Origin: Escherichia coli
Lineage (GTDB): Bacteria; Pseudomonadota; Gammaproteobacteria; Enterobacterales; Enterobacteriaceae
DNA length: 64,000 nucleotides
Reading direction: 5' to 3' (one strand)
Assembly (NCBI RefSeq): GCF_003334785.1
Contig: NZ_QOWV01000012.1
The position numbers and the translations under genes are program-made. The notes below the pieces were generated by a model. It saw only the letters and a list, made by a program, of their open reading frames with translations. It ran no database searches and was not told the DNA's origin. Positions 3,981 to 26,002 of this stretch are shown one piece after another; the stretch's first letter is position 1, and each line of letters starts with the position of its first letter.

Positions 3981-5003
3981 ATGTCTACGATGAATGTTTT
4001 AATTTGCCAGCAGCCGAAAGAATTAGTCTGGAAACAACGCGAGATACCTATTCCGGGTGACAATGAAGCATTAATAAAAATTAAGTCTGTCGGGATTTGC
4101 GGTACCGATATTCATGCCTGGGGTGGAAATCAACCATTTTTTAGTTATCCACGTGTTTTAGGCCATGAAATATGTGGGGAGATTGTTGGGCTGGGTAAAA
4201 ATATTGCTGATCTTAAAAATGGTCAGCAAGTTGCTGTGATCCCTTATGTTGCCTGTCAGCAATGCCCGGCGTGTAAAAGCGGGCGTACCAATTGCTGTGA
4301 AAAAATTTCAGTCATTGGCGTGCATCAGGATGGCGGTTTTAGTGAGTATTTGAGCGTGCCGGTGGCGAACATTTTGCCCGCAGACGGTATTGACCCGCAG
4401 GCGGCCGCATTGATTGAACCTTTCGCTATTAGCGCTCATGCGGTGCGTCGCGCAGCCATTGCTCCCGGCGAGCAGGTGCTGGTGGTCGGGGCGGGGCCAA
4501 TCGGTCTGGGCGCGGCGGCAATCGCTAAAGCTGATGGCGCACAGGTGGTGGTGGCGGATACCAGTCCAGCGCGCCGTGAACATGTGGCAACGCGTCTGGA
4601 GTTGCCCGTGCTGGACCCGTCAGCCGAAGATTTTGACGCGCAGCTGCGGGCGCAGTTTGGTGGTTCGCTGGCGCAGAAAGTGATCGACGCGACAGGTAAT
4701 CAACATGCGATGAATAACACCGTGAATTTGATTCGTCACGGCGGCACGGTGGTATTTGTCGGCCTGTTTAAAGGTGAGTTGCAGTTCTCCGATCCGGAAT
4801 TCCATAAAAAAGAAACGACGATGATGGGTAGCCGCAACGCCACGCCGGAAGATTTTGCTAAAGTCGGTCGACTGATGGCGGAAGGAAAAATCACTGCTGA
4901 CATGATGTTAACCCATCGCTATCCGTTCGCCACGCTGGCAGAAACCTACGAGCGCGATGTGATTAACAATCGTGAGTTGATTAAGGGTGTAATTACTTTC
5001 TGA
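3981..5003 (+). CDS. lgoD: Zn-dependent medium-chain dehydrogenase, L-galactonate 5-dehydrogenase
   Basis: GHE..G zinc-ADH motif and GxGxxG NAD fold (VVGAGPIGLG); start chosen at MSTMNVL giving 340 aa. Confidence 0.85.
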   Translation: MSTMNVLICQQPKELVWKQREIPIPGDNEALIKIKSVGICGTDIHAWGGNQPFFSYPRVLGHEICGEIVGLGKNIADLKNGQQVAVIPYVACQQCPACKSGRTNCCEKISVIGVHQDGGFSEYLSVPVANILPADGIDPQAAALIEPFAISAHAVRRAAIAPGEQVLVVGAGPIGLGAAAIAKADGAQVVVADTSPARREHVATRLELPVLDPSAEDFDAQLRAQFGGSLAQKVIDATGNQHAMNNTVNLIRHGGTVVFVGLFKGELQFSDPEFHKKETTMMGSRNATPEDFAKVGRLMAEGKITADMMLTHRYPFATLAETYERDVINNRELIKGVITF

Positions 5004-5142
5004 TAAGGCGAGATTATTAAAGTTGCCATGCAGCGTCCGGGGAAGTGTTGGGCGCTGTTTTTTTTCTGTTTCTCAATGATGTTTTGTAGGCCGGAGAAGA
5101 TGTGTAGGTCGCACCTTATGCGACCTACACATCAGTCAGAAA

Positions 5143-7434
5143 TTACCCTTCACGTTCCACAACTTTAATTTCCACCATGCCGATCCCGAGCTTACGCGGC
5201 GAGTGTCCGAGGATATTCCCTTCGTTGGTTGAGACAGGTTCCGGCGGCACAATTACCAGTGTGTCGGCATCGGTTGGGTTATCGAAATGCAGTGTGGTGG
5301 TGGTCACTTCATTGCCCAGCACAAGAGTTTGTTCTTCATTGCCTACGCGTACCGGAATAGGACGGCTGGCGTTATTGCCGTATGCTTTGGCGGTAATCAC
5401 CAGGTCAAATTTCTTCGGCAGCGGATGCTTGTACTCGATTTTTACTTCATCGCCCAGCTGCGCGTTGGACCAGCGGCCCCACGACTCTGGACGGGAAATC
5501 CCACTAAACTGTTTCACCTCTTCTGGCGCACCGGCGACGTTGAAGATGAAACTGTCGGCTTTGTAGCGAATATCGTTATCAACAATTTTCAGCGTATCGA
5601 CATTGCCTTTATAACGCGCCATGTCGATGACCGTATCTTTAAATGCCGTTTTGCCCTGCCATGTTGTTTTGTCAACATGCTGAACAATTTGCTGACCGCC
5701 AAGCTGCCCTTGCGAGACACACCAGTCGGTGGAGAGTGCCAGTTCCGGAGCCCAGAGTTGTGCCATCTTATAGCAACGGTCAACCCAGACGAAATTGTCG
5801 CGTGGAGCGAAATCGGCCAGCTGGAAACGCAGCGGTGCTGAGTATTCGCTTTCCGGCAGCGGTTCCACGCGTTTGTCTGAAACCCGCAACAGCAGCGGCA
5901 AACGGAAATGGCTACCCGAGAAGGCAATTATGTTTTTCTGCTGGTCGATGGTGAACTCTTTCATCTCTTTAGGGAATTTCCACAGGCGGATGATATCCGG
6001 CTTCCACGCCAATGTTTTCTCTTTGATATTGAGGAAGATTTCCGACATTGACTGCCCGGATAAACTGCTACGACCAAGTCCGAGATAGTTATCGCCACCG
6101 AGAATGTCCAGCACCGTCGCGCCGTTATCCATCGTGTTACGCTTCACTGCCAGCGTCTCTTGCTGCGGCTTGTCGCCACGAATGACAAAAAACAGGTTAT
6201 TGCGATCCTGCTTATTGAGGTATTTCCACGCCGTGTTGTTCATCGCTAAATGGTCAGAAGAGACGACGATGACGGTATCTTTAAACCACGGTGACGCTTT
6301 GATTTTGTTGATAAACGCCGCGATATTCTCCTGGCTGCAACTTACCGCGCTGAATGACTGGTTCGGCTTACCGTCAAGATCATATTTTTTGCGGTTACAG
6401 GTACGCGAGATAAAACCATCCGGGTGATGGGTATCGACTGTCAGGGTAAACAGTGAGAATCGCTGACCTGAGCGGGAAAGCTCTTCAAACTTTTTCCACG
6501 CTTCATCGAGAACGGTATCGTCGTAGAATCCCCAGTCGTTGCGATAGTGCGGGTCGGCCACCACGCTTTTCAGCTCTTCTGAGCCGTATAAGTGGTCGAA
6601 GCCATGCGACTTCAGGAACACATCTTTACCGGCAAAACGCAGATTCGCGCCCTGCACGAAATAGTTCTGATAACCCGAGTTTTTCAGGATATCGCCCAGA
6701 CAGATGTTCTGCGGGAAGAAGCTGGAGACAGAGGCGGAGGCGTTGCCTTCAAAGGGGGCAAACAGCGGTATGCCGCACTGAGAAGCCACCATGCCCGCAA
6801 TCGTGTAATCCGTTCCTGGCAGCTGCTGCGTGTGGCTGAAATCCAGGCCTTCATTTTTCAACGCGCCCAGTTCAGGCGTGAGATCCGGGAAAGCTTCGTT
6901 ATCAAAATAGGTCCGCTCGAGACTTTCGCCGTAGATATAAACCAGGTTGAGTTTCGGGTCAGGGATAGTTTTCGACGGCTCTTTATAATAAGCCGCAAAG
7001 TCCGGGTCGCCATCGCGTGACTGGGATTTCACCAGTTCCGTTATCTGACGAAATGCCGGGCTGGCGTCCACCGAACCCAGCGCCAGTAAGAGCGCCAGCA
7101 GGCTGTAACCAAAATGGTGCGGATGATGGCGACGACGGCGCAGGATCCAGCCCAGCGCACCGAACACCGCTGTCAGCCCCAGCACAATGCCGATACCCGG
7201 CAGGATGTATTTGCTGACGCCAGCACCGGTCAGGCTGTTGGTTAAGGTATAGAGAACCGCGTCGTTAATACCAGCGCCAGTAAAATAGTCGCTGGCAAAC
7301 AGGGTGATATTTAAAACGACAAATAGCCCCAGCACCGTTAATGTGGCTGCAAACCACCAGGTGTTACGTCCCGCTTTCCATGCGTAAATCAGCACAGAGG
7401 CGAGAAAAAGGGCGAAAGAGAGTAGTTCTGACAA
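5143..7434 (-). CDS. opgB: Phosphoglycerol transferase I (osmoregulated periplasmic glucan biosynthesis)
   Basis: 763-aa ORF, N-terminal TM segments plus sulfatase-like domain, matches OpgB/MdoB. Confidence 0.9.
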
Positions 7435-8970: not shown

Positions 8971-9510
8971 TTACCCTCTGAATCCTGGTGGAATTTGGCT
9001 GTCAGGTTCGCTGACCGTATTCACATCTCGTTTCGGCAGTCCGCCGTTGCTGGCACGACCGATTTGCAGGCTGCGCGCCAGTTTTTGTTGCCACTGCACA
9101 TGGTGAAAGACTTTACCTTCCGCCTGCCAGTAGGCAATGAATGAGGCCAGTTCTTCGGTGGTCACCGGCTCTCTTAGCGCCACGCCCCATAGCGCCGCCA
9201 GGCGGATAAAGTCGGCATCGGGTTGCCAGTCCGGATACATGGCGAATTTCCCCATGGGGACAGCAACGGGAGCGGCTTGCGGTTCCTGATAGAGTTGATC
9301 GTCCAGAGCGACATCGCTTCCCGGACGCGCCAGCTTTTCTTCCAGCGCCAGCAGTTCAGCCAGGCGTGCAGGCGTGACGGCATAAAACGCCGGGGCATTG
9401 TTAGCAAATACGGCAACCACACCGCCTTCAGCTTTTGCCAGAACGGTTTGGTGATCGTGTACCAGGGCGTCAATACCAACGACGTCCGGGGTCAAAACTC
9501 TGGAAGACAT
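8971..9510 (-). CDS. dnaT: Primosomal protein DnaT
   Basis: 179 aa starting MSSRVLT, immediately upstream of dnaC with 2-bp gap (operon). Confidence 0.9.
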
Positions 9511-9616
9511 ACTGTTTCTCAAATATGGAACGATGAACGAGAAGGGAGATAACTTTTATAGTAACACACGGAGGAGAGGAGGCTGTCTCTCATCCGTGTG
9601 CTTAAGCGAGGCAATT

Positions 9617-10090
9617 TTATACGCGAGGGCGCTTGCGGTACAACCATAATCCAGGAATGGAAAGACCGATGGATAACGCACCAACAATCGATGAAGCTGT
9701 AAGAAAGTTGGTTAACAGGGTAATCATCAACGGTTCGCTGTAACCTAACTGGCTGATTTTTACCGCCGAAATCATTGCGGTATAAGCCGATATGCCCGGG
9801 AACATAGGGATAACGGCCGCCACGGTAAACACTTTCGGATGCGCCAGATACCAGCGCGACCATTGAATACCAATGGTGCCGACCAGCATAGAAGCCATAA
9901 AAGTTGACCACTCAATATTCAGCCCGCTGGTCATTAAGATCATTCGTGAACCATGGCCAATCGCGCCAAGCAGCGCACACCAGCGTAACGCCCGCACGGG
10001 AACGTTGAACACCATCGCAAAGCCGACCGCTGGAATGGCGGCGAGGATCATATCCTGCGCCAATGCAAACAGAAACTCGATCACACCCAT
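9617..10090 (-). CDS. yjjB: ThrE-family membrane protein, C-terminal-type half (YjjB)
   Basis: 157-aa hydrophobic ORF overlapping yjjP stop by 10 bp. Confidence 0.8.
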
Positions 10091-10851
10091 CCGCGTAGCC
10101 CCCAAATCGTCAGTGCCATCACTACGCCGACGCAGGTAGCCAGCGTCAGCAGACTGGCGATCGCCCAGCGTGCCAGTCCGGTATTGATGTGGCCTTTAAA
10201 CATATCGGCGACGGCATTAATCAACGGAAAGCCCGGCACCAGCAGCAGAACGCTGGCGGCCATCGCAATGGTGGGTGTATCGCTGAAAGTGGGGAGTTGC
10301 AAAAGCAATCCGGAAATGGTGGTGGCGGCGAAAGCGGTAAGGCAAAAGTTGATCTGTGGATGAAGATGACGTTGTGCCAGCAGCTGGCGGATATACATCG
10401 CGGTCGTACTGGCAAAGAAGGTGATGACGGCACCATCCCAGCCACCGTTATTGAGTTTACAGAAACAGGCGCAAGAAAGGCCAACCATTAAGGCTACCAG
10501 CCATCTTGGGTAACGTAATGGCTGAATTTGGCTAAATCGTTTCTCTACGCCTTTGTAATCCAGCAGATGATGCTCCGCAAGAATCACAATGTGCTGGACT
10601 TCAGTCACCACATGCATATTAATGCCGCGATCGTGATTTTTTCGTGTCGATGTCAGGCATTGCCCATCTTTAATAGTTGTCAGCACTATGGCGTTCGAAG
10701 AGATAGAACTTTCGACGCTGTCCATTCCCAACGCCCGACCCAGTCGTGAGGAAAGCTCATCAACCAACGCGCTTTCCGCACCATGTTGCAAAAGAAATAA
10801 TCCACACTGGATACAAAGCCGCGTTACGGCTCGCTGTTGCTCAGTTTGCAT
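10081..10851 (-). CDS. yjjP: ThrE-family inner membrane protein (YjjP)
   Basis: Start chosen at MQTEQQRAV giving 256 aa; multi-TM. Confidence 0.8.
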
Positions 10852-11471
10852 AACTCGCCCTTTGTCATAGACGTGCTGCGTATTGTTCAGATAATGAGAA
10901 TCCATTTGTATCATGAAGCACGGTTGTTTTGCGGTAGGTTAAGATCAAAATTGCGCTGATTAATCCTGGTTATCGGGACAAGCTCGGTGATAAAAAGCGA
11001 ATTATCTCTCGCCGCAAACAAACTATCACATGAATATTATCACTATAATGAATTTATTGTTTTAGCCTTTACGGGTCAGGATAATAGATAGCTGGGCGCG
11101 TTTTTTAGTGTTAACAAGTTAAAATCATCAGATTTTATTGAATAAATATTGATTGTGTGATTCCCGCATTCTGCGGGAAGGGATATCATTTAATTATAAA
11201 TTAAATGAATGTGATTTCTGTTTTTCATTAAGTATTCCTAACAACTTAATGTAGATATTTTAAATGTCTCCAGGCTATTTCACCAGGTTATCATTTGATG
11301 CTAACCTTCTGACACATGCAGTGGAGTTGTTGTGCAGCAGGAGTATGCTGATATGAAAGTGAATGCTAAGGATAATTTATTCGCTTAATCTATTAATTTG
11401 CTGGAAACATTTAAGGAATGAATATCCTGAATAAACCATCATAATTTTTAGACAGTGGATGTGGAGGAAAT

Positions 11472-12197
11472 ATGTTGCCAGGATGCTGCAAAAATGGAAT
11501 TGTTATCAGTAAAATACCTGTTATGCAAGCAGGGTTAAAAGAGGTCATGAGGACTCACTTCCCTGAATATGAAATAATATCCAGCGCCTCTGCGGAGGAC
11601 CTTACCTTATTACAATTACGTCGTTCCGGATTAGTCATTGCTGATTTAGCCGGTGAAAGTGAAGATCCACGTTCTGTTTGTGAACATTATTATTCTTTAA
11701 TCTCACAATATCGGGAAATTCACTGGGTTTTCATGGTGTCACGCTCCTGGTATTCCCAGGCAGTAGAACTGCTCATGTGCCCTACGGCGACGTTATTGTC
11801 TGATGTTGAACCCATTGAGAATCTGGTCAAGACCGTACGTTCCGGCAATACGCACGCAGAGCGTATCAGCGCCATGCTGACCTCTCCGGCAATGACTGAA
11901 ACTCATGATTTTAGCTATCGCTCCGTCATTCTCACTCTTTCAGAGCGCAAGGTACTGCGGCTATTAGGTAAAGGATGGGGCATCAACCAGATAGCTTCAT
12001 TGCTTAAGAAAAGTAATAAAACTATCAGCGCCCAAAAAAACAGTGCGATGCGTCGACTGGCAATTCACAGCAACGCTGAAATGTATGCATGGATAAATAG
12101 CGCGCAGGGTGCAAGAGAACTTAACTTGCCTTCTGTTTATGGAGATGCCGCAGAATGGAACACAGCCGAATTAAGAAGAGAAATGTCGCACTCATAG
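11472..12197 (+). CDS. yjjQ: LuxR/FixJ-family transcriptional regulator
   Basis: 241 aa with C-terminal LuxR-type HTH; preceded by a long AT-rich region. Confidence 0.85.
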
Positions 12198-12832
12198 AAA
12201 AATGCGTCATGAGTAGTATCGGTATTGAGAGTTTATTCAGAAAGTTTGCGGGCAACCCTTATAAGCTCCATACCTATACCAGTCAGGAGTCATTTCAGGA
12301 TGCCATGTCGCGGATCTCGTTTGCGGCGGTCATTTTTTCTTTTTCTGCCATGAGAAGTGAGCGCAGAGAGGGATTATCTTGCCTGACTGAACTGGCGATT
12401 AAGTTTCCGCGTACCCGGCGTTTAGTTATTGCGGATGATGATATTGAAGCTCGGCTGATTGGTTCATTGTCGCCATCACCGCTGGACGGTGTATTAAGTA
12501 AAGCGTCAACGCTGGAGATTTTTCATCAGGAACTCTTTTTGTCATTAAATGGTGTACGTCAGGCGACCGACCGACTGAACAATCAGTGGTACATTAACCA
12601 AAGCCGGACGCTAAGCCCGACGGAGAGAGAAATATTGCGCTTTATGTCGCGTGGCTACTCAATGACACAAATTGCCGAGCAGCTTAAACGCAATATCAAA
12701 ACGATCCGCGCGCATAAATTTAATGTGATGTCGAAACTGGGCGTCAGTTCTGATGCAGGATTGTTGGAGGCCGCAGATATTCTGTTATGTATGCGGCATT
12801 GCGAAGCAAGTAATGTGTTGCATCCCTATTAA
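12155..12832 (+). CDS. bglJ: LuxR-family transcriptional activator BglJ
   Basis: 225 aa, overlaps yjjQ 3' end, C-terminal LuxR HTH. Confidence 0.85.
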
Positions 12833-22063: not shown

Positions 22064-22078
22064 TTTACCCTTCGTAGG

Positions 22079-22579
<501 letters not shown>

Positions 22580-22590
<11 letters not shown>

Positions 22591-23443
22591 GCGCCGGAAA
22601 TATCAACCGGCCCACCCCGCGCACCTTTAATGCATCAGCCAACGGCTCAACGTCTTCCGGCGTGGCGCTCGCCCAGCTTTGCGCCTCGCCATACACGCCG
22701 TGGGCATGAAACGCGTTCAGGCGTACCGGAACATCGCCAAGTCCCTTGATAAACGCCGCCAGTTCTTCGATGTGTTGCAAATAATCCACCTGGCCAGGGA
22801 TTACCAGCAAACGCAGTTCCGCCAGCTTGCCGCGCTCTGCCAGCAAACAGATGCTGCGCTTAATCTGCTGATTATCGCGTCCGGTTAATTGTTGATGACA
22901 TTCGCTACCCCATGCTTTGAGATCGAGCATTGCGCCGTCACACACCGGGAGTAATTTTTCCCAGCCGGTTTCGCTCAACATGCCGTTACTGTCCACCAGA
23001 CAGGTGAGATGGCGCAGTTGCGGATCGTTTTTGATAGCAGTAAACAGCGCCACTACAAACGGCAGTTGGGTCGTGGCTTCGCCGCCGCTTACCGTTATCC
23101 CTTCAATAAACAGCACCGCTTTGCGGACATGGCTAAGCACTTCGTCCACGCTCATGGATTGCGCCATCGGCGTGGCATGTTGCGGACACCTCTTCAGGCA
23201 GGTATCACACTGCTCGCAGACCGCAGCGTTCCACACCACTTTGCCGTCAACAATCTGCAACGCCTGATGCGGACACTGTGGCACGCACTCTCCGCAATGA
23301 TTACAGCGCCCCATCGTCCACGGATTGTGACAGTTTTTGCAGCGCAGATTGCAGCCCTGCAAAAACAGAGCCAGACGACTGCCTGGCCCGTCAACGCAGG
23401 AGAAGGGGATAATCTTACTGACTAAAGCGCATCTGCTGTTCAT
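22580..23443 (-). CDS. yjjW: Glycyl-radical enzyme activating protein (radical SAM, with two ferredoxin-type 4Fe-4S motifs)
   Basis: CNLRCKNC radical-SAM motif plus [12 protein letters not shown] and [12 protein letters not shown] cluster motifs. Confidence 0.85.
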
Positions 23444-24965
23444 GGCTTATCACGCGCGGCTGGCGTTCCAGAATACGAGTGTTGCGTGCGGCTTCTTCGC
23501 CCAGCCAGGTGGTGTTGGTGCGTGAACCTTCGGCGCGATATTTTTCTAAATCCGACAAACGCACCATATAACCGGTAACGCGAACCAGATCGTTACCGCT
23601 GACATTGGCGGTAAATTCACGCATTCCGGCTTTAAAGGCACCGAGGCAAAGCTGTACCAGCGCCTGCGGATTACGTTTGATGGTTTCGTCGAGCGTCAGA
23701 ATGTCGCTGATGCCGGAATAATAATAAGCATGATGCGGGGCGACAGTTTGCAGATGGGTGATCGGATCTGGCTCATCGCCATAGGGTAAACGCGCGCCCG
23801 GCGTGGTGCCGATATCGGAACTGATCCCCGACTGTGCGTGTAACATGGCGCGTTTTTGCCAGCCATATTTCACGGGGGTATTGGCGACAAACTCCGCCAG
23901 TTGCGCGCTGATGCGATAACCCACTTCATTTGCGGCGGCTTCTTTACCGTAGCGCGCGGCAATCCCTTCTTTCTCACACAGCAAGTTAACCGCTTCCGCC
24001 AGCCCATACATGCCAAACATTGGCACAAAACGTTCAGGGTTAATCAGCCCTTCTTTCACCAGGAAGCTATTCTCAAAGAAGTGTGATTGTTGATAGAGGA
24101 ATTCACACCGCGCATCGATGATGGCGATCTGCTGCTGGCAGTAGTGCGGTAGAGTGCGCGTAAAGAAGTCATCCAGCGATTCGCTGCGCTCGGCAATGGC
24201 TTTCAGGTTAAGGCGTACCAGCGTGCTGCCACCACCCGCCAGCGGCAGTGAGTTGTAACAGCTCACAATCCCGTAGCCCCCTTTTGTGAAAATTTTATCA
24301 TGCACCGGACCGTTGGCGATGTGCGGTTTGCTACATTCACAGATGTTCTTCGCCACTTCCAGCAGTAGGTCATCAGGGGTGATTTCAGGATCGTAGATAA
24401 AGGTCAGGTTCGGTGAAACCTGCTTCAACTCTGCGTCTGCACGTAAGATTGCACGGGTAATGGGCGAATCAGACGGGCCGATATTGGCGTGCATAAAGGC
24501 GTCTGGCAGGGTTCTGTCGAGGTAACGCCAGAAACGTTTTATTCGAATATCGATCTCGTCTTGTGTTAGAATTCTAACATACGGTTGCAACAACGCATCC
24601 AGTTGCCCCAGGTAGACCGGCATCGATGTGACCGACGGTACGTGGTGGTAAAGAATGGTCAGCAGAGAGAGTGCGTCATCAAGATCTTTCGCGCCTTCCA
24701 GCTCCAGCCATTCGGAACCGTTCGCCAGAAAACGGGCGTAATCGGGTAAGACATAGCGCGGTTTGTACGGCGCATGACCTTCAAACATATCGCAGATTAC
24801 ACCCTCATCCAGCGCACGGCGGGCTTCGGCAGGCAGCTGCGGATAAGGCAGATTGTTTTCTGCTTCAAGTGCCAGAAAATGGCGCTTCTGCTCCGGGCTA
24901 AGCACTGGGCTGGTGACAATTTGCTGGCAACGTTGTTGCAGTGCATTTTCATCAGAAGTGGGCAT
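23415..24965 (-). CDS. yjjI: Glycyl-radical-enzyme-like protein of unknown function (YjjI family)
   Basis: 516 aa; C-terminal RVTGY glycine-radical-like motif; 29-bp overlap with downstream yjjW. Confidence 0.85.
24285..24300. promoter_or_regulatory. Candidate DeoR operator OE (degenerate)
   Basis: tgtgaaaattttatca, imperfect palindrome 279 bp upstream of O1, matching the known OE-O1 spacing. Confidence 0.4.
24564..24579. promoter_or_regulatory. DeoR operator O1 (deo P1), located inside the yjjI coding region
   Basis: Perfect 16-bp palindrome tgttagaattctaaca, 599 bp upstream of O2. Confidence 0.75.
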
Positions 24966-25162
24966 CTTCTTTTCCTTTTATGCCGAAGGTGATGCGCCAT
25001 TGTAAGAAGTTTCGTGATGTTCACTTTGATCCTGATGCGTTTGCCACCACTGACGCATTCATTTGAAAGTGAATTATTTGAACCAGATCGCATTACAGTG
25101 ATGCAAACTTGTAAGTAGATTTCCTTAATTGTGATGTATATCGAAGTGTGTTGCGGAGTAGA

Positions 25163-25178
25163 TGTTAGAATACTAACA
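25163..25178. promoter_or_regulatory. DeoR operator O2 (deo P2)
   Basis: tgttagaatactaaca 45 bp upstream of deoC start. Confidence 0.75.
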
Positions 25179-25222
25179 AACTCGCAAGGTGAATTTTATT
25201 GGCGACAAGCCAGGAGAATGAA

Positions 25223-26002
25223 ATGACTGATCTGAAAGCAAGCAGCCTGCGTGCACTGAAATTGATGGACCTGACCACCCTGAATGACGACGACACCGAC
25301 GAGAAAGTAATTGCTCTGTGTCATCAGGCCAAAACTCCGGTCGGCAATACCGCCGCTATCTGTATCTATCCTCGCTTTATCCCGATTGCTCGCAAAACGC
25401 TGAAAGAGCAGGGCACCCCGGAAATCCGAATCGCTACGGTAACCAACTTCCCACACGGTAACGATGACATCGAAATCGCGCTGGCAGAAACCCGTGCGGC
25501 AATCGCCTACGGTGCAGATGAAGTTGACGTTGTGTTCCCGTACCGCGCGCTGATGGCGGGTAACGAGCAGGTTGGTTTTGACCTGGTGAAAGCCTGTAAA
25601 GAGGCTTGCGCGGCAGCGAATGTACTGCTGAAAGTGATCATCGAAACCGGCGAACTGAAAGACGAAGCGCTGATCCGTAAAGCGTCTGAAATCTCCATCA
25701 AAGCGGGTGCGGACTTCATCAAAACCTCTACCGGTAAAGTGGCTGTGAACGCGACGCCGGAAAGCGCGCGCATCATGATGGAAGTGATCCGTGATATGGG
25801 CGTAGAAAAAACCGTTGGTTTCAAACCGGCGGGCGGCGTGCGTACTGCGGAAGATGCGCAGAAATATCTCGCCATCGCAGATGAACTGTTCGGTGCTGAC
25901 TGGGCTGATGCGCGTCACTACCGCTTTGGTGCTTCCAGCCTGCTGGCAAGCCTGCTGAAAGCGCTGGGCCACGGCGACGGTAAGAGCGCCAGCAGCTACT
26001 AA
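25223..26002 (+). CDS. deoC: Deoxyribose-phosphate aldolase
   Basis: 259 aa starting [20 protein letters not shown]. Confidence 0.95.

Follow-up and report, generated by a model that had tools for sequence, protein, structure and literature searches.

On the minus strand of the window, a 64,000-nucleotide stretch of Escherichia coli DNA, two genes, yjjI and yjjW, overlap at their ends:

22580-23443, minus strand: yjjW coding sequence, an open reading frame of 287 aa for a predicted radical-SAM activase (TIGR04041; Radical_SAM and Fer4 domains).
23415-24965, minus strand: yjjI coding sequence, an open reading frame of 516 aa for a predicted minimal glycyl radical enzyme.
23415-23443, minus strand: overlap between the 3' end of yjjI and the 5' end of yjjW, 29 bp.

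The reading frame coordinates, the overlap and the motifs quoted in a first-pass annotation of this DNA were all exact in the sequence. The ATG of yjjW sits within the final codons of yjjI and, since Proteus and Providencia keep the YjjW N-terminus (MNSRC...), the overlapping start is real. The tight coupling inferred earlier from this arrangement also recurs elsewhere: in 31 of 41 lineages the yjjI stop overlaps the start of the activase gene or lies right against it, with overlaps of 4-29 bp being the rule at this junction, and the activase is the next gene after yjjI at 69 of 74 loci. The locus had been described as core, in agreement with the presence of the pair in 5423 of 5426 complete E. 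coli genomes at 95-100% locus identity. YjjI scored 788 bits against NCBIfam TIGR04040 (cut-off 498) and matched Pfam PF11230 at E 2e-220, while YjjW scored 398 bits against TIGR04041 (cut-off 250). We are highly confident that yjjI and yjjW encode a genuine glycyl radical enzyme together with its activase. Its existence is already catalogued, as public databases name the pair; both families are still marked 'hypoth_equivalog' in NCBIfam (June 2026). The annotation had stated that the reaction is not established, and we likewise found no biochemical assignment for YjjI or YjjW in 8 million papers, the 2026 PDB or the June 2026 NCBIfam. Few glycyl radical enzyme systems of E. coli K-12 still have no assigned reaction, and this pair is among them; recent work on the glycyl radical enzymes of the species leaves YjjI out. 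A universal third subunit or partner, sought in the neighbourhoods across lineages, was not found, and an Rfam scan of both genes and their flanks returned no RNA element except a downstream repeat array.

The activase carries two groups of cysteine motifs:

23330-23353, minus strand: C31-x3-C35-x2-C38, the radical-SAM cluster motif (GCNLRCKNC), read in the sequence.
23183-23305, minus strand: residues 47-87, a ferredoxin-like insert with two CxxCxxCxxxC(P) motifs (Fer4_9 and Fer4_7 matches at residues 46-90).

The CX3CX2C motif, V17-D-G-P-G21 and G120-G-E122 (the SGGE motif) are invariant in six diverse activases. A Radical_SAM domain was detected at E 3e-13, together with 4Fe-4S dicluster domains, and the two CxxCxxCxxxCP motifs span C47-P58 and C76-P87. 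The closest PDB relative is PflA, which shares the VDGPG, CX3CX2C and GGE motifs; YjjW is PflA/CutD-like and unlike NrdG. Its next-best NCBIfam matches are the HypD, sulfopropanediol dehydratase, indoleacetate decarboxylase, CutC, HPAD and BssD activases and the general TIGR02494, the last at 136 bits and under the 174-bit cut-off. Activases of the TIGR02494 type (PflC, YbiY, CutD, HpdA, BssD) have the same domain order as YjjW, namely VDGPG, CX3CX2C, two CX2CX2CX3C motifs, GGE and a TIM-like core, and those of the 1,2-eliminases bear the same two-cluster insert; YjjW stands apart in having its own family, part of which is missing the insert. Four aligned distant members (actinobacterial, archaeal and two others) are without it, and 19 of 69 activases fall in the same short size class. 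Most glycyl-radical activases are normally built with a two-cluster insert right behind CX3CX2C, and within the YjjW family the insert is dispensable, so the earlier description of the activase as unusual did not hold up.

Four features of YjjI bear on its chemistry:

23568-23582, minus strand: R462-V-T-G465-Y466, predicted glycyl radical loop, aligned to PFL IRVSGY (G734).
24252-24263, minus strand: S235-C236-Y237-N238, Cys finger loop with the predicted thiyl-radical cysteine; C236 aligns with PFL C419 and S235 with C418.
24738-24761, minus strand: P69-R-Y-V-L-P-D-Y76, the most conserved motif of YjjI among 101 homologues, on the first barrel strand.
24213-24215, minus strand: R251, equivalent of the PFL substrate-binding Arg435 in hhalign and hmmsearch alignments.

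Searched as a single sequence, YjjI matched PDB sequences at chance level only, and it took a family profile together with a fold search to place it. The AlphaFold2 model (pLDDT 92.4, pTM 0.91) predicts the canonical ten-stranded alpha/beta barrel, as in ribonucleotide reductases, and the fold search returned class III reductases as best structural matches. In hhalign, the family profile matched PflB with 94.4% probability over 387 columns and NrdD with 68% over 407 columns; the PflB alignment paired C236 with C419, G465 with G734, R251 with R435, F157 with W333 and R392 with the arginine of TPDGR. The earlier remark that YjjI does not look like PflB is therefore right for single-sequence searches, which fail, but not for the profile or the predicted barrel. 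Structure prediction, proposed earlier as a check, located both radical loops: RVTGY forms the tip of a hairpin of beta strands (strands 460-462 and 467-469) and the Cys loop between strands 231-234 and 238-241. Conservation was assessed in 101 non-redundant, diverse homologues of 31-74% identity. C236 is found in all 101, S235 in 99, Y237 in 96 and N238 in 98; G465 and R462 are each present in 99, R251 in 100, and R70, Y71 and Y76 in 100 each. The Gly465/Cys236 pair, conserved in at least 99 of the 101, agrees with the original assignment of a glycyl radical enzyme with a radical-SAM activase, and YjjI appears to be a genuine but minimal member of this group. The 57 positions conserved at 95% or more suggest one function for the whole family. 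PRYVLPDY aligns to the NrdD loop that bears the second catalytic cysteine, Cys175. R70 may correspond to PFL R176 (PRY-x-LPDY versus G-R176-IIGDY), the N-terminal alignment being suggestive but insignificant (E 0.47).

YjjI lacks the residues that define three known reaction classes: formate-lyase, NrdD and 1,2-eliminase. PflB/TdcE with PflA is its best sequence-profile match, and the two share an RVxGY loop, a TPxxR motif, the R435-equivalent arginine, an aromatic residue at the W333 position and activation by FNR. YjjI, however, has a serine at the Cys418 position (S235-C236 instead of the Cys-Cys pair), making an acyl-enzyme mechanism impossible, and is about 245 residues shorter than PflB, without its N-terminal region. 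PFL models gave no match to YjjI; NCBIfam reports TIGR04040 only, and the E. coli protein has no PFL-like Pfam match. The 1,2-eliminases (PflD, YbiW, CutC, glycerol/propanediol dehydratase, HypD) resemble YjjI in having a single catalytic cysteine, but the glutamate two residues past it (GCxE, the general base) is Asn238 in 98 of 101 YjjI members, and the eliminases are 764-825 aa long versus 516 aa. Class III NrdD likewise has a glycyl radical near the C-terminus, a thiyl cysteine on a finger loop and a similar motif behind that loop (NLGVISLNL versus STLVRLNL); further likenesses are anaerobic expression and the nucleoside-linked gene context of YjjI. Identity between the two is 13-17%, and YjjI has neither the second catalytic cysteine of all studied class III reductases (PRYVLPDY stands at the place of E. 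coli NrdD C175) nor a Met before the cysteine. It is also without the NrdD zinc-binding Cys cluster and the ATP-cone, and 120-170 residues shorter than the solved NrdD chains matched in the fold search. Without a second cysteine, a reductive reaction would need a mechanism not yet seen.

Expression of the pair under anaerobiosis is indicated by its upstream region and by published data:

24999-25039, minus strand: predicted yjjI promoter, comprising an FNR half-site (CGCAT-CAGG-ATCAA, 25026-25039), 21 nt and a -10 element TACAAT (24999-25004), with a putative start.

As no full FNR palindrome was found at the yjjI promoter, we propose the conserved half-site and -10 element instead; GGATCAAA and TACAAT are conserved at fixed spacing from E. 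coli to Hafnia. A published FNR ChIP peak lies at about window position 25059, with yjjI among the directly FNR-activated genes, an HU regulon study also describes yjjI as FNR-activated, and the gene is anaerobically induced in Yersinia. In four other lineages, a CRP/FNR-family regulator lies directly upstream of the pair. The sole site found in the intergenic region, at 25131-25144, was discarded as the FNR site of yjjI because it has been published as the site where CRP acts on deoP2. A CRP site lies near 25077-25092, and transcription from deoP1 runs antisense through yjjI. Generic promoter and terminator scans gave results at chance level.

Besides the activase, the recurrent neighbours of yjjI are nucleoside and pentose genes, a link, including that to the neighbouring deo operon, that the first-pass annotation had overlooked. 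In Enterobacteriaceae and Hafniaceae, yjjI-yjjW is divergent from deoCABD, while Proteus and Providencia have no deo adjacency; nine distant genomic loci had no shared neighbour. We first took the deo adjacency for mere clade-limited synteny and dropped this view after 80 metagenome loci gave recurrent nucleoside genes. Neighbours were counted over 51 dereplicated lineages, which are not fully independent of one another. A BMP-family (nucleoside) ABC transporter lies near the pair in 8 of these lineages, a ribokinase/PfkB gene in 6 and a Rih nucleoside hydrolase in 4; in 3, an inserted Nudix gene separates yjjI from the activase. Directly behind the activase, one lineage (L147) encodes DeoD (353 bits) and DeoC (241 bits), and another (L143) a nucleoside 2-deoxyribosyltransferase (PF05014, E 3e-23); in a third (L162), yjjI is flanked by a PfkB kinase nearest to pseudouridine kinase and by a TrpF-like isomerase. 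Among the 39 lineages with enough context, 15 have a nucleoside or pentose marker within seven genes, 11 have one in the same-strand run of yjjI, and 24 have no nucleoside gene nearby; the background rate of such markers, about 5-10%, is a reasoned estimate, not a measured control. In Haemophilus influenzae, the pair lies together with the NupC nucleoside transporter within 3.1 kb, and an earlier network study placed YjjI in a deoxyribonucleoside-degradation module. Unrelated neighbours were seen in Proteus, Providencia, Ferrimonas, an actinobacterium and an archaeon. DNA glycosylases occur near the pair in three lineages. A cluster of TypA, a CDF transporter, YaiI, RuvA and RuvB in four lineages is ordinary synteny, of which only the Nudix insertion is of interest.

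The search for a substrate is thereby narrowed: the active site excludes the three known mechanisms, the fold points to ribonucleotide reductase (RNR), and the neighbourhoods, in at least 15 lineages as well as in E. coli and Haemophilus, point to nucleoside and pentose breakdown. The best explanation overall, to which we assign a rough probability of 0.4, would have YjjI act on a ribosyl compound in the manner of RNR and so supply DeoC; that the substrate is a nucleoside-derived or ribosyl compound is given about the same chance, somewhat under even. Under anaerobiosis, yjjI-yjjW would be produced as a self-contained two-gene module. By analogy with its family, the CX3CX2C [4Fe-4S] cluster of YjjW would cleave S-adenosylmethionine, and the 5'-deoxyadenosyl radical would take a hydrogen from YjjI Gly465. 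The glycyl radical would probably move on to Cys236 on the adjacent finger loop. Gene context and fold suggest that the thiyl radical could attack the ribosyl part of a nucleoside-derived metabolite, with ribose 5-phosphate as first and a ribonucleoside or ribose 1-phosphate as second candidate, through RNR-like 3-H abstraction and expulsion of the 2-OH. This would give a 2-deoxypentose compound; as YjjI has no second cysteine, the reductant would likely be formate. DeoC (deoxyribose-phosphate aldolase) would split the product into glyceraldehyde 3-phosphate and acetaldehyde. Deoxyribose 5-phosphate acts as the inducer of DeoR.

Narrower versions of this proposal deserve less credence. It is conceivable, if on balance unlikely, that YjjI founds a new glycyl radical reaction class, as a stripped-down RNR relative whose target for deoxygenation is a free ribosyl metabolite (ribose 5-phosphate or a ribonucleoside) and not a DNA-destined nucleotide. 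We consider the specific conversion of ribose 5-phosphate to 2-deoxyribose 5-phosphate improbable. The pentose phosphate pathway already handles ribose 5-phosphate as a standard route, which leaves a YjjI route without an evident physiological need. The nearby Nudix, deoxyribosyltransferase and DNA glycosylase genes are unaccounted for by the ribose-5-phosphate version. Counter to the ribosyl reading, the active-site arginines shared with PFL hold a carboxylate in that enzyme, and a small acid fits as well as a phosphate.

The first alternative, which we judge unlikely, is that YjjI resembles PFL in its activity and takes as substrate a small carboxylic acid from central anaerobic metabolism (a 2-oxo or 2-hydroxy acid, or formate itself), with the nucleoside neighbours reflecting coincidence or shared regulation. 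The family profile lies nearer PflB than NrdD, R251 matches PFL R435, the PRY-x-LPDY motif resembles the R176 region, and in many genomes the module has no companions; in Paraclostridium sordellii, a DcuC-family carboxylate carrier lies directly upstream, beside an oxaloacetate-decarboxylase operon. However, serine replaces Cys418 in 99 of 101 homologues, which excludes PFL chemistry, the R176 alignment is insignificant, and carboxylate-metabolism genes do not recur across lineages, whereas nucleoside genes do.

A slimmer chance falls to a role in nucleoside metabolism at another bond, be it radical cleavage of a glycosidic bond that resists hydrolases, as in a modified or C-nucleoside such as pseudouridine, removal of a 2'-substituent (such as 2'-O-methyl), or reduction of free ribonucleosides to deoxyribonucleosides for salvage. 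The same gene context speaks for it as for the RNR-like reaction feeding DeoC, as do the L162 kinase and isomerase flanking yjjI, the L143 deoxyribosyltransferase behind the activase, the Nudix insertions and the DNA glycosylases, the latter two in three lineages each, but none of these partners is widespread. Moreover, the pseudouridine kinase match is far under its cut-off (208 versus 540 bits), a deoxynucleoside kinase was not seen near the pair, and the conserved Arg and Lys residues hint at a negatively charged group on the substrate, which free nucleosides do not have.

That YjjI is a divergent anaerobic ribonucleotide reductase supplying deoxynucleotides seems very improbable. Its best structural matches are class III reductases, Pfam NRDD matches, some weak or faint, are on record for many Firmicutes members, and the gene context is nucleoside-related. 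Yet the second cysteine is missing from the first-strand loop, residues 380-516 hold a single Cys, so the Cys-rich zinc site ahead of the Gly loop is missing, there is no ATP-cone or specificity-site region, the protein falls about 130-200 residues short of NrdD structures, and the Pfam NRDD match of E. coli YjjI (residues 248-360) has an E of 0.61; E. coli, in addition, already has nrdDG. Least credible is the role in nitrate/nitrite (nitrogen) metabolism proposed from narG co-expression, as the multi-species bicluster with narGHJI and an FNR motif and the single-cell co-expression with nrfA, frd, ynfEF and dmsA are explained by shared FNR control, nitrogen-oxide genes do not recur beside yjjI in the 51 lineages, and NO itself, according to one paper, inactivates glycyl radical enzymes.

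If the deoxygenation of a free ribosyl metabolite is correct, it would provide an anaerobic, formate-driven shortcut from ribonucleosides to DeoC, yielding glyceraldehyde 3-phosphate and acetaldehyde, and E. coli K-12 would gain a previously unknown pentose fermentation route together with a reductase-independent source of deoxyribose. Ribosyl deoxygenation would be a new reaction type for glycyl radical enzymes and, in gut bacteria, would add a new branch to the anaerobic metabolism of nucleosides and pentoses. The pair is kept even in the small genome of H. influenzae and is also found in gut Firmicutes, Actinomycetota, Chloroflexota and an archaeon.

The window is E. coli chromosome, and the 2.8 kb around yjjI and yjjW are 100% identical to several strains, ATCC 8739 among them; the region was found in 5423 of 5426 complete E. 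coli genomes. Both ORFs lie exactly where the first-pass annotation had placed them, overlap included, and all the motifs it quoted (RVTGY in YjjI; CNLRCKNC and two CxxCxxCxxxCP clusters in YjjW) could be read in the sequence:

22580-23443, minus strand: yjjW, ORF sharing 29 bp with yjjI
23415-24965, minus strand: yjjI, ORF sharing 29 bp with yjjW

RefSeq lists yjjI as 'YjjI family glycine radical enzyme' and yjjW as 'YjjW family glycine radical enzyme activase'; in K-12, yjjI is labelled 'DUF3029 domain-containing protein YjjI' and yjjW 'putative glycyl-radical enzyme activating enzyme YjjW'. As TIGRFAMs/NCBIfam, Pfam and the K-12 annotation already contain the pair, it is catalogued and not new as an object; our contribution is a list of mechanisms excluded for YjjI and a specific, testable tie of the pair to anaerobic nucleoside and pentose catabolism. 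As previously proposed, this is an orphan radical enzyme pair with no established reaction: no assignment was found in the literature, the 2026 PDB or the June 2026 NCBIfam.

Modelling and sequence comparison indicate that YjjI is a genuine yet minimal glycyl radical enzyme. A search of 1.84 billion representatives gave no more than 542 relatives, many being fragments, and an AlphaFold2 model built on their alignment reached a mean pLDDT of 92.4 and a pTM of 0.91. The initial impression that YjjI does not look like PflB (pyruvate formate-lyase, PFL) arises because single-sequence comparison with solved structures gives no match; it holds for that comparison, but not for the family profile, which matched PflB at 94.4% probability over 387 columns and NrdD, the class III ribonucleotide reductase, at 68% over 407 columns. 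Profile alignment equated the following residues:

G465 of YjjI: G734 of PFL
C236 of YjjI: C419 of PFL
S235 of YjjI: C418 of PFL
R251 of YjjI: R435 of PFL
F157 of YjjI: W333 of PFL
R392 of YjjI: in PFL, Arg of the family-wide TPDGR motif

Among 101 non-redundant full-length homologues (31-74% identity to E. coli YjjI), C236, E305 and D123 were each kept in all 101, R70, Y71, H159 and R251 in 100, G465 and S235 in 99, and N238 in 98, so the conserved Cys/Gly pair, whose absence the first-pass annotation would have taken as refutation, is present.

Judged by its residues, the YjjI active site (S-C-Y-N plus R70, H159, K213, R251, E305, H376, Q378 and D384) fits no characterised glycyl radical enzyme class. 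PFL chemistry is rejected since it requires Cys418, where YjjI has Ser. In class III reductases the first-strand loop supplies a second cysteine, whereas the aligned, invariant PRYVLPDY motif of YjjI has none; neither a Cys-rich zinc site nor an ATP-cone was found in the YjjI sequence, and this identity was also discarded. The dehydratase/lyase group, which has Glu two residues past the Cys, is ruled out by the Asn of YjjI.

Three motifs of glycyl-radical activases, VDGPG, CX3CX2C and GGE, occur in YjjW. Its closest solved relative is PflA, the PFL activase, and its next-best NCBIfam matches are the HypD, sulfopropanediol dehydratase, indoleacetate decarboxylase, CutC, HPAD and BssD activases. 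Its description as unusual proved unjustified, because the insert directly after CX3CX2C, which holds the two ferredoxin-like clusters, is the standard arrangement in most such activases. If anything, the insert seems dispensable among YjjI partners: it is missing from YjjI-adjoining activases of an actinobacterium, an archaeon, Proteinivorax and one further contig, and the same short size class takes in 19 of the 69 partner activases.

In E. coli and relatives, yjjI lies beside the divergently transcribed upstream deoCABD operon. Because this adjacency is missing in Proteus and Providencia, and the activase was the only apparent common neighbour in nine distant genomic loci, we at first took it for mere synteny, a view overturned by scanning metagenome contigs with a Firmicutes-centred YjjI alignment. 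ORFs were called in 92 loci, their products clustered, and the loci merged into 51 lineages at 85% YjjI identity. After the universal activase, the commonest neighbours were BMP-family ABC transporters (binding protein, double ATPase and two permeases; 8 lineages), ribokinase-type kinases (6), Rih-type nucleoside hydrolases (4), CRP/FNR-type regulators directly upstream (4) and LacI repressors closest to RbsR/PurR/CytR (3). The BMP family has a role in nucleoside uptake. One locus (L147) reads transporter, YjjI, activase, DeoD (353 bits) and DeoC (241 bits); another (L143) reads regulator, YjjI, activase, nucleoside 2-deoxyribosyltransferase (PF05014, E 3e-23), hydrolase, ribokinase (338 bits), hydrolase and binding protein. 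A Nudix hydrolase separates yjjI from the activase in three lineages. Nucleoside-type markers lay at most seven genes from yjjI in 15 of the 39 lineages whose loci showed five or more neighbours, and in a same-strand, short-gap run with it in 11, against a random-gene background of perhaps 5-10%, estimated by reasoning rather than from a measured control. In H. influenzae, a single 3.1-kb segment holds the pair and a NupC-family nucleoside transporter, a different family from BMP with the same job. A 2009 network study had likewise grouped YjjI with deoxyribonucleoside degradation.

DNA glycosylase genes (AlkD-like, endonuclease III and Ogg-type N-glycosylase) occur near yjjI in three unrelated lineages, by chance or perhaps hinting at a link to damaged (deoxy)ribose; the endonuclease III gene is the immediate upstream neighbour:

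L136, 9725-10390: DNA glycosylase gene
L177, 6355-7005: DNA glycosylase gene
L165, 2557-3210: DNA glycosylase gene

Control of yjjI is anaerobic. A published list includes it among the directly FNR-activated genes; its ChIP peak, at 4,615,181 (old K-12 numbering), converts to about window 25059, using a sigma-54 site as ruler plus current K-12 coordinates. No full FNR palindrome occurs at the promoter; the series GGATCAAA, 21 nt and TACAAT, however, has been conserved all the way from Escherichia to Hafnia, consistent with a start near position 24992 preceded by a predicted FNR half-site at about -40.5. Expression is higher anaerobically in Yersinia, yjjI is co-expressed with anaerobic respiration genes, and the protein has been detected in proteomes. 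A 'nitrogen metabolism' proposal was set aside, its basis being shared FNR control only. The ruler motif, CTGGCTCTGTTTTTGCA (23358-23374, minus strand), lies 69-85 nt inside yjjW and was a strong intragenic site in a published ChIP study.

The yjjI-deoC gap is 257 bp with the K-12 deoC start, an ATG (MTDLKA...) at 25223, 24 nt after the TTG at 25199 in a mechanical ORF list. The yjjI coding sequence contains a perfect DeoR operator palindrome, TGTTAGAATTCTAACA (24564-24579); a second copy with one mismatch precedes deoC (25163-25178), 599 bp away, a distance that matches the classical deoP1/deoP2 spacing. It follows that deoP1 transcripts must cross the first ~390 nt of yjjI, together with its promoter, in the antisense direction, and deo and yjjI expression could interfere with each other. 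Published CRP ChIP-seq sites lie inside yjjI (24627-24642) and in the gap (25131-25146). A further CRP-like site, TGCGATCTGGTTCAAA (about 25077-25092), conserved across Enterobacteriaceae, sits ~92 bp upstream of the start predicted for yjjI. The two divergent promoters may therefore be under joint CRP/CytR control.

YjjW probably places a radical on G465 that is relayed to C236; we propose that C236 would then take a hydrogen off the ribosyl ring of a metabolite derived from nucleosides, and that the 2-OH would be lost as in ribonucleotide reductase. In the simplest version, ribose 5-phosphate would become 2-deoxyribose 5-phosphate, a single step joining ribokinase to DeoC, which cleaves the product to glyceraldehyde 3-phosphate and acetaldehyde. 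Because YjjI lacks a second cysteine, formate, plentiful under FNR control via PFL, would have to be the direct hydrogen donor, a role for which no enzyme precedent is established. The conserved Arg and Lys residues would be candidates for binding the phosphate. Among the papers searched, none tied a glycyl radical enzyme to nucleoside or deoxyribose metabolism. The reaction might instead occur at the nucleoside level, or be a redox-neutral dehydration. The substrate might also be a carboxylate, to which a sole context points: Paraclostridium sordellii (L094), where yjjI is preceded by a DcuC-family carrier and the activase is followed by a sodium pump operon of the oxaloacetate-decarboxylase type (features at 4441-5832 and 9355-12627).

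Downstream of the pair, a repeat array precedes the convergent yjjV and yjjU. The yjjV-yjjW gap (22075-22579) is entirely a tandem array of 101-bp units that stops one base short of the yjjW stop codon; it gave four full and one partial match (74-84 bits) to Rfam naRNA4/CssrE, a REP/BIME type of repeat. Being ~97 bp longer than in K-12, the gap holds one extra unit in this strain. Among database entries, an 875-aa AlphaFold DB protein attributed to the whipworm Trichuris trichiura ('Fer4_12 and DUF3029 and Radical SAM') shares 100% identity with E. coli YjjI; its gene model almost certainly fuses yjjI and yjjW from contaminating bacterial DNA. A 2.9-kb contig encodes a 574-aa NCBI protein that joins YjjI to an aldolase domain of the DeoC type; this protein is probably an artefact of assembly.
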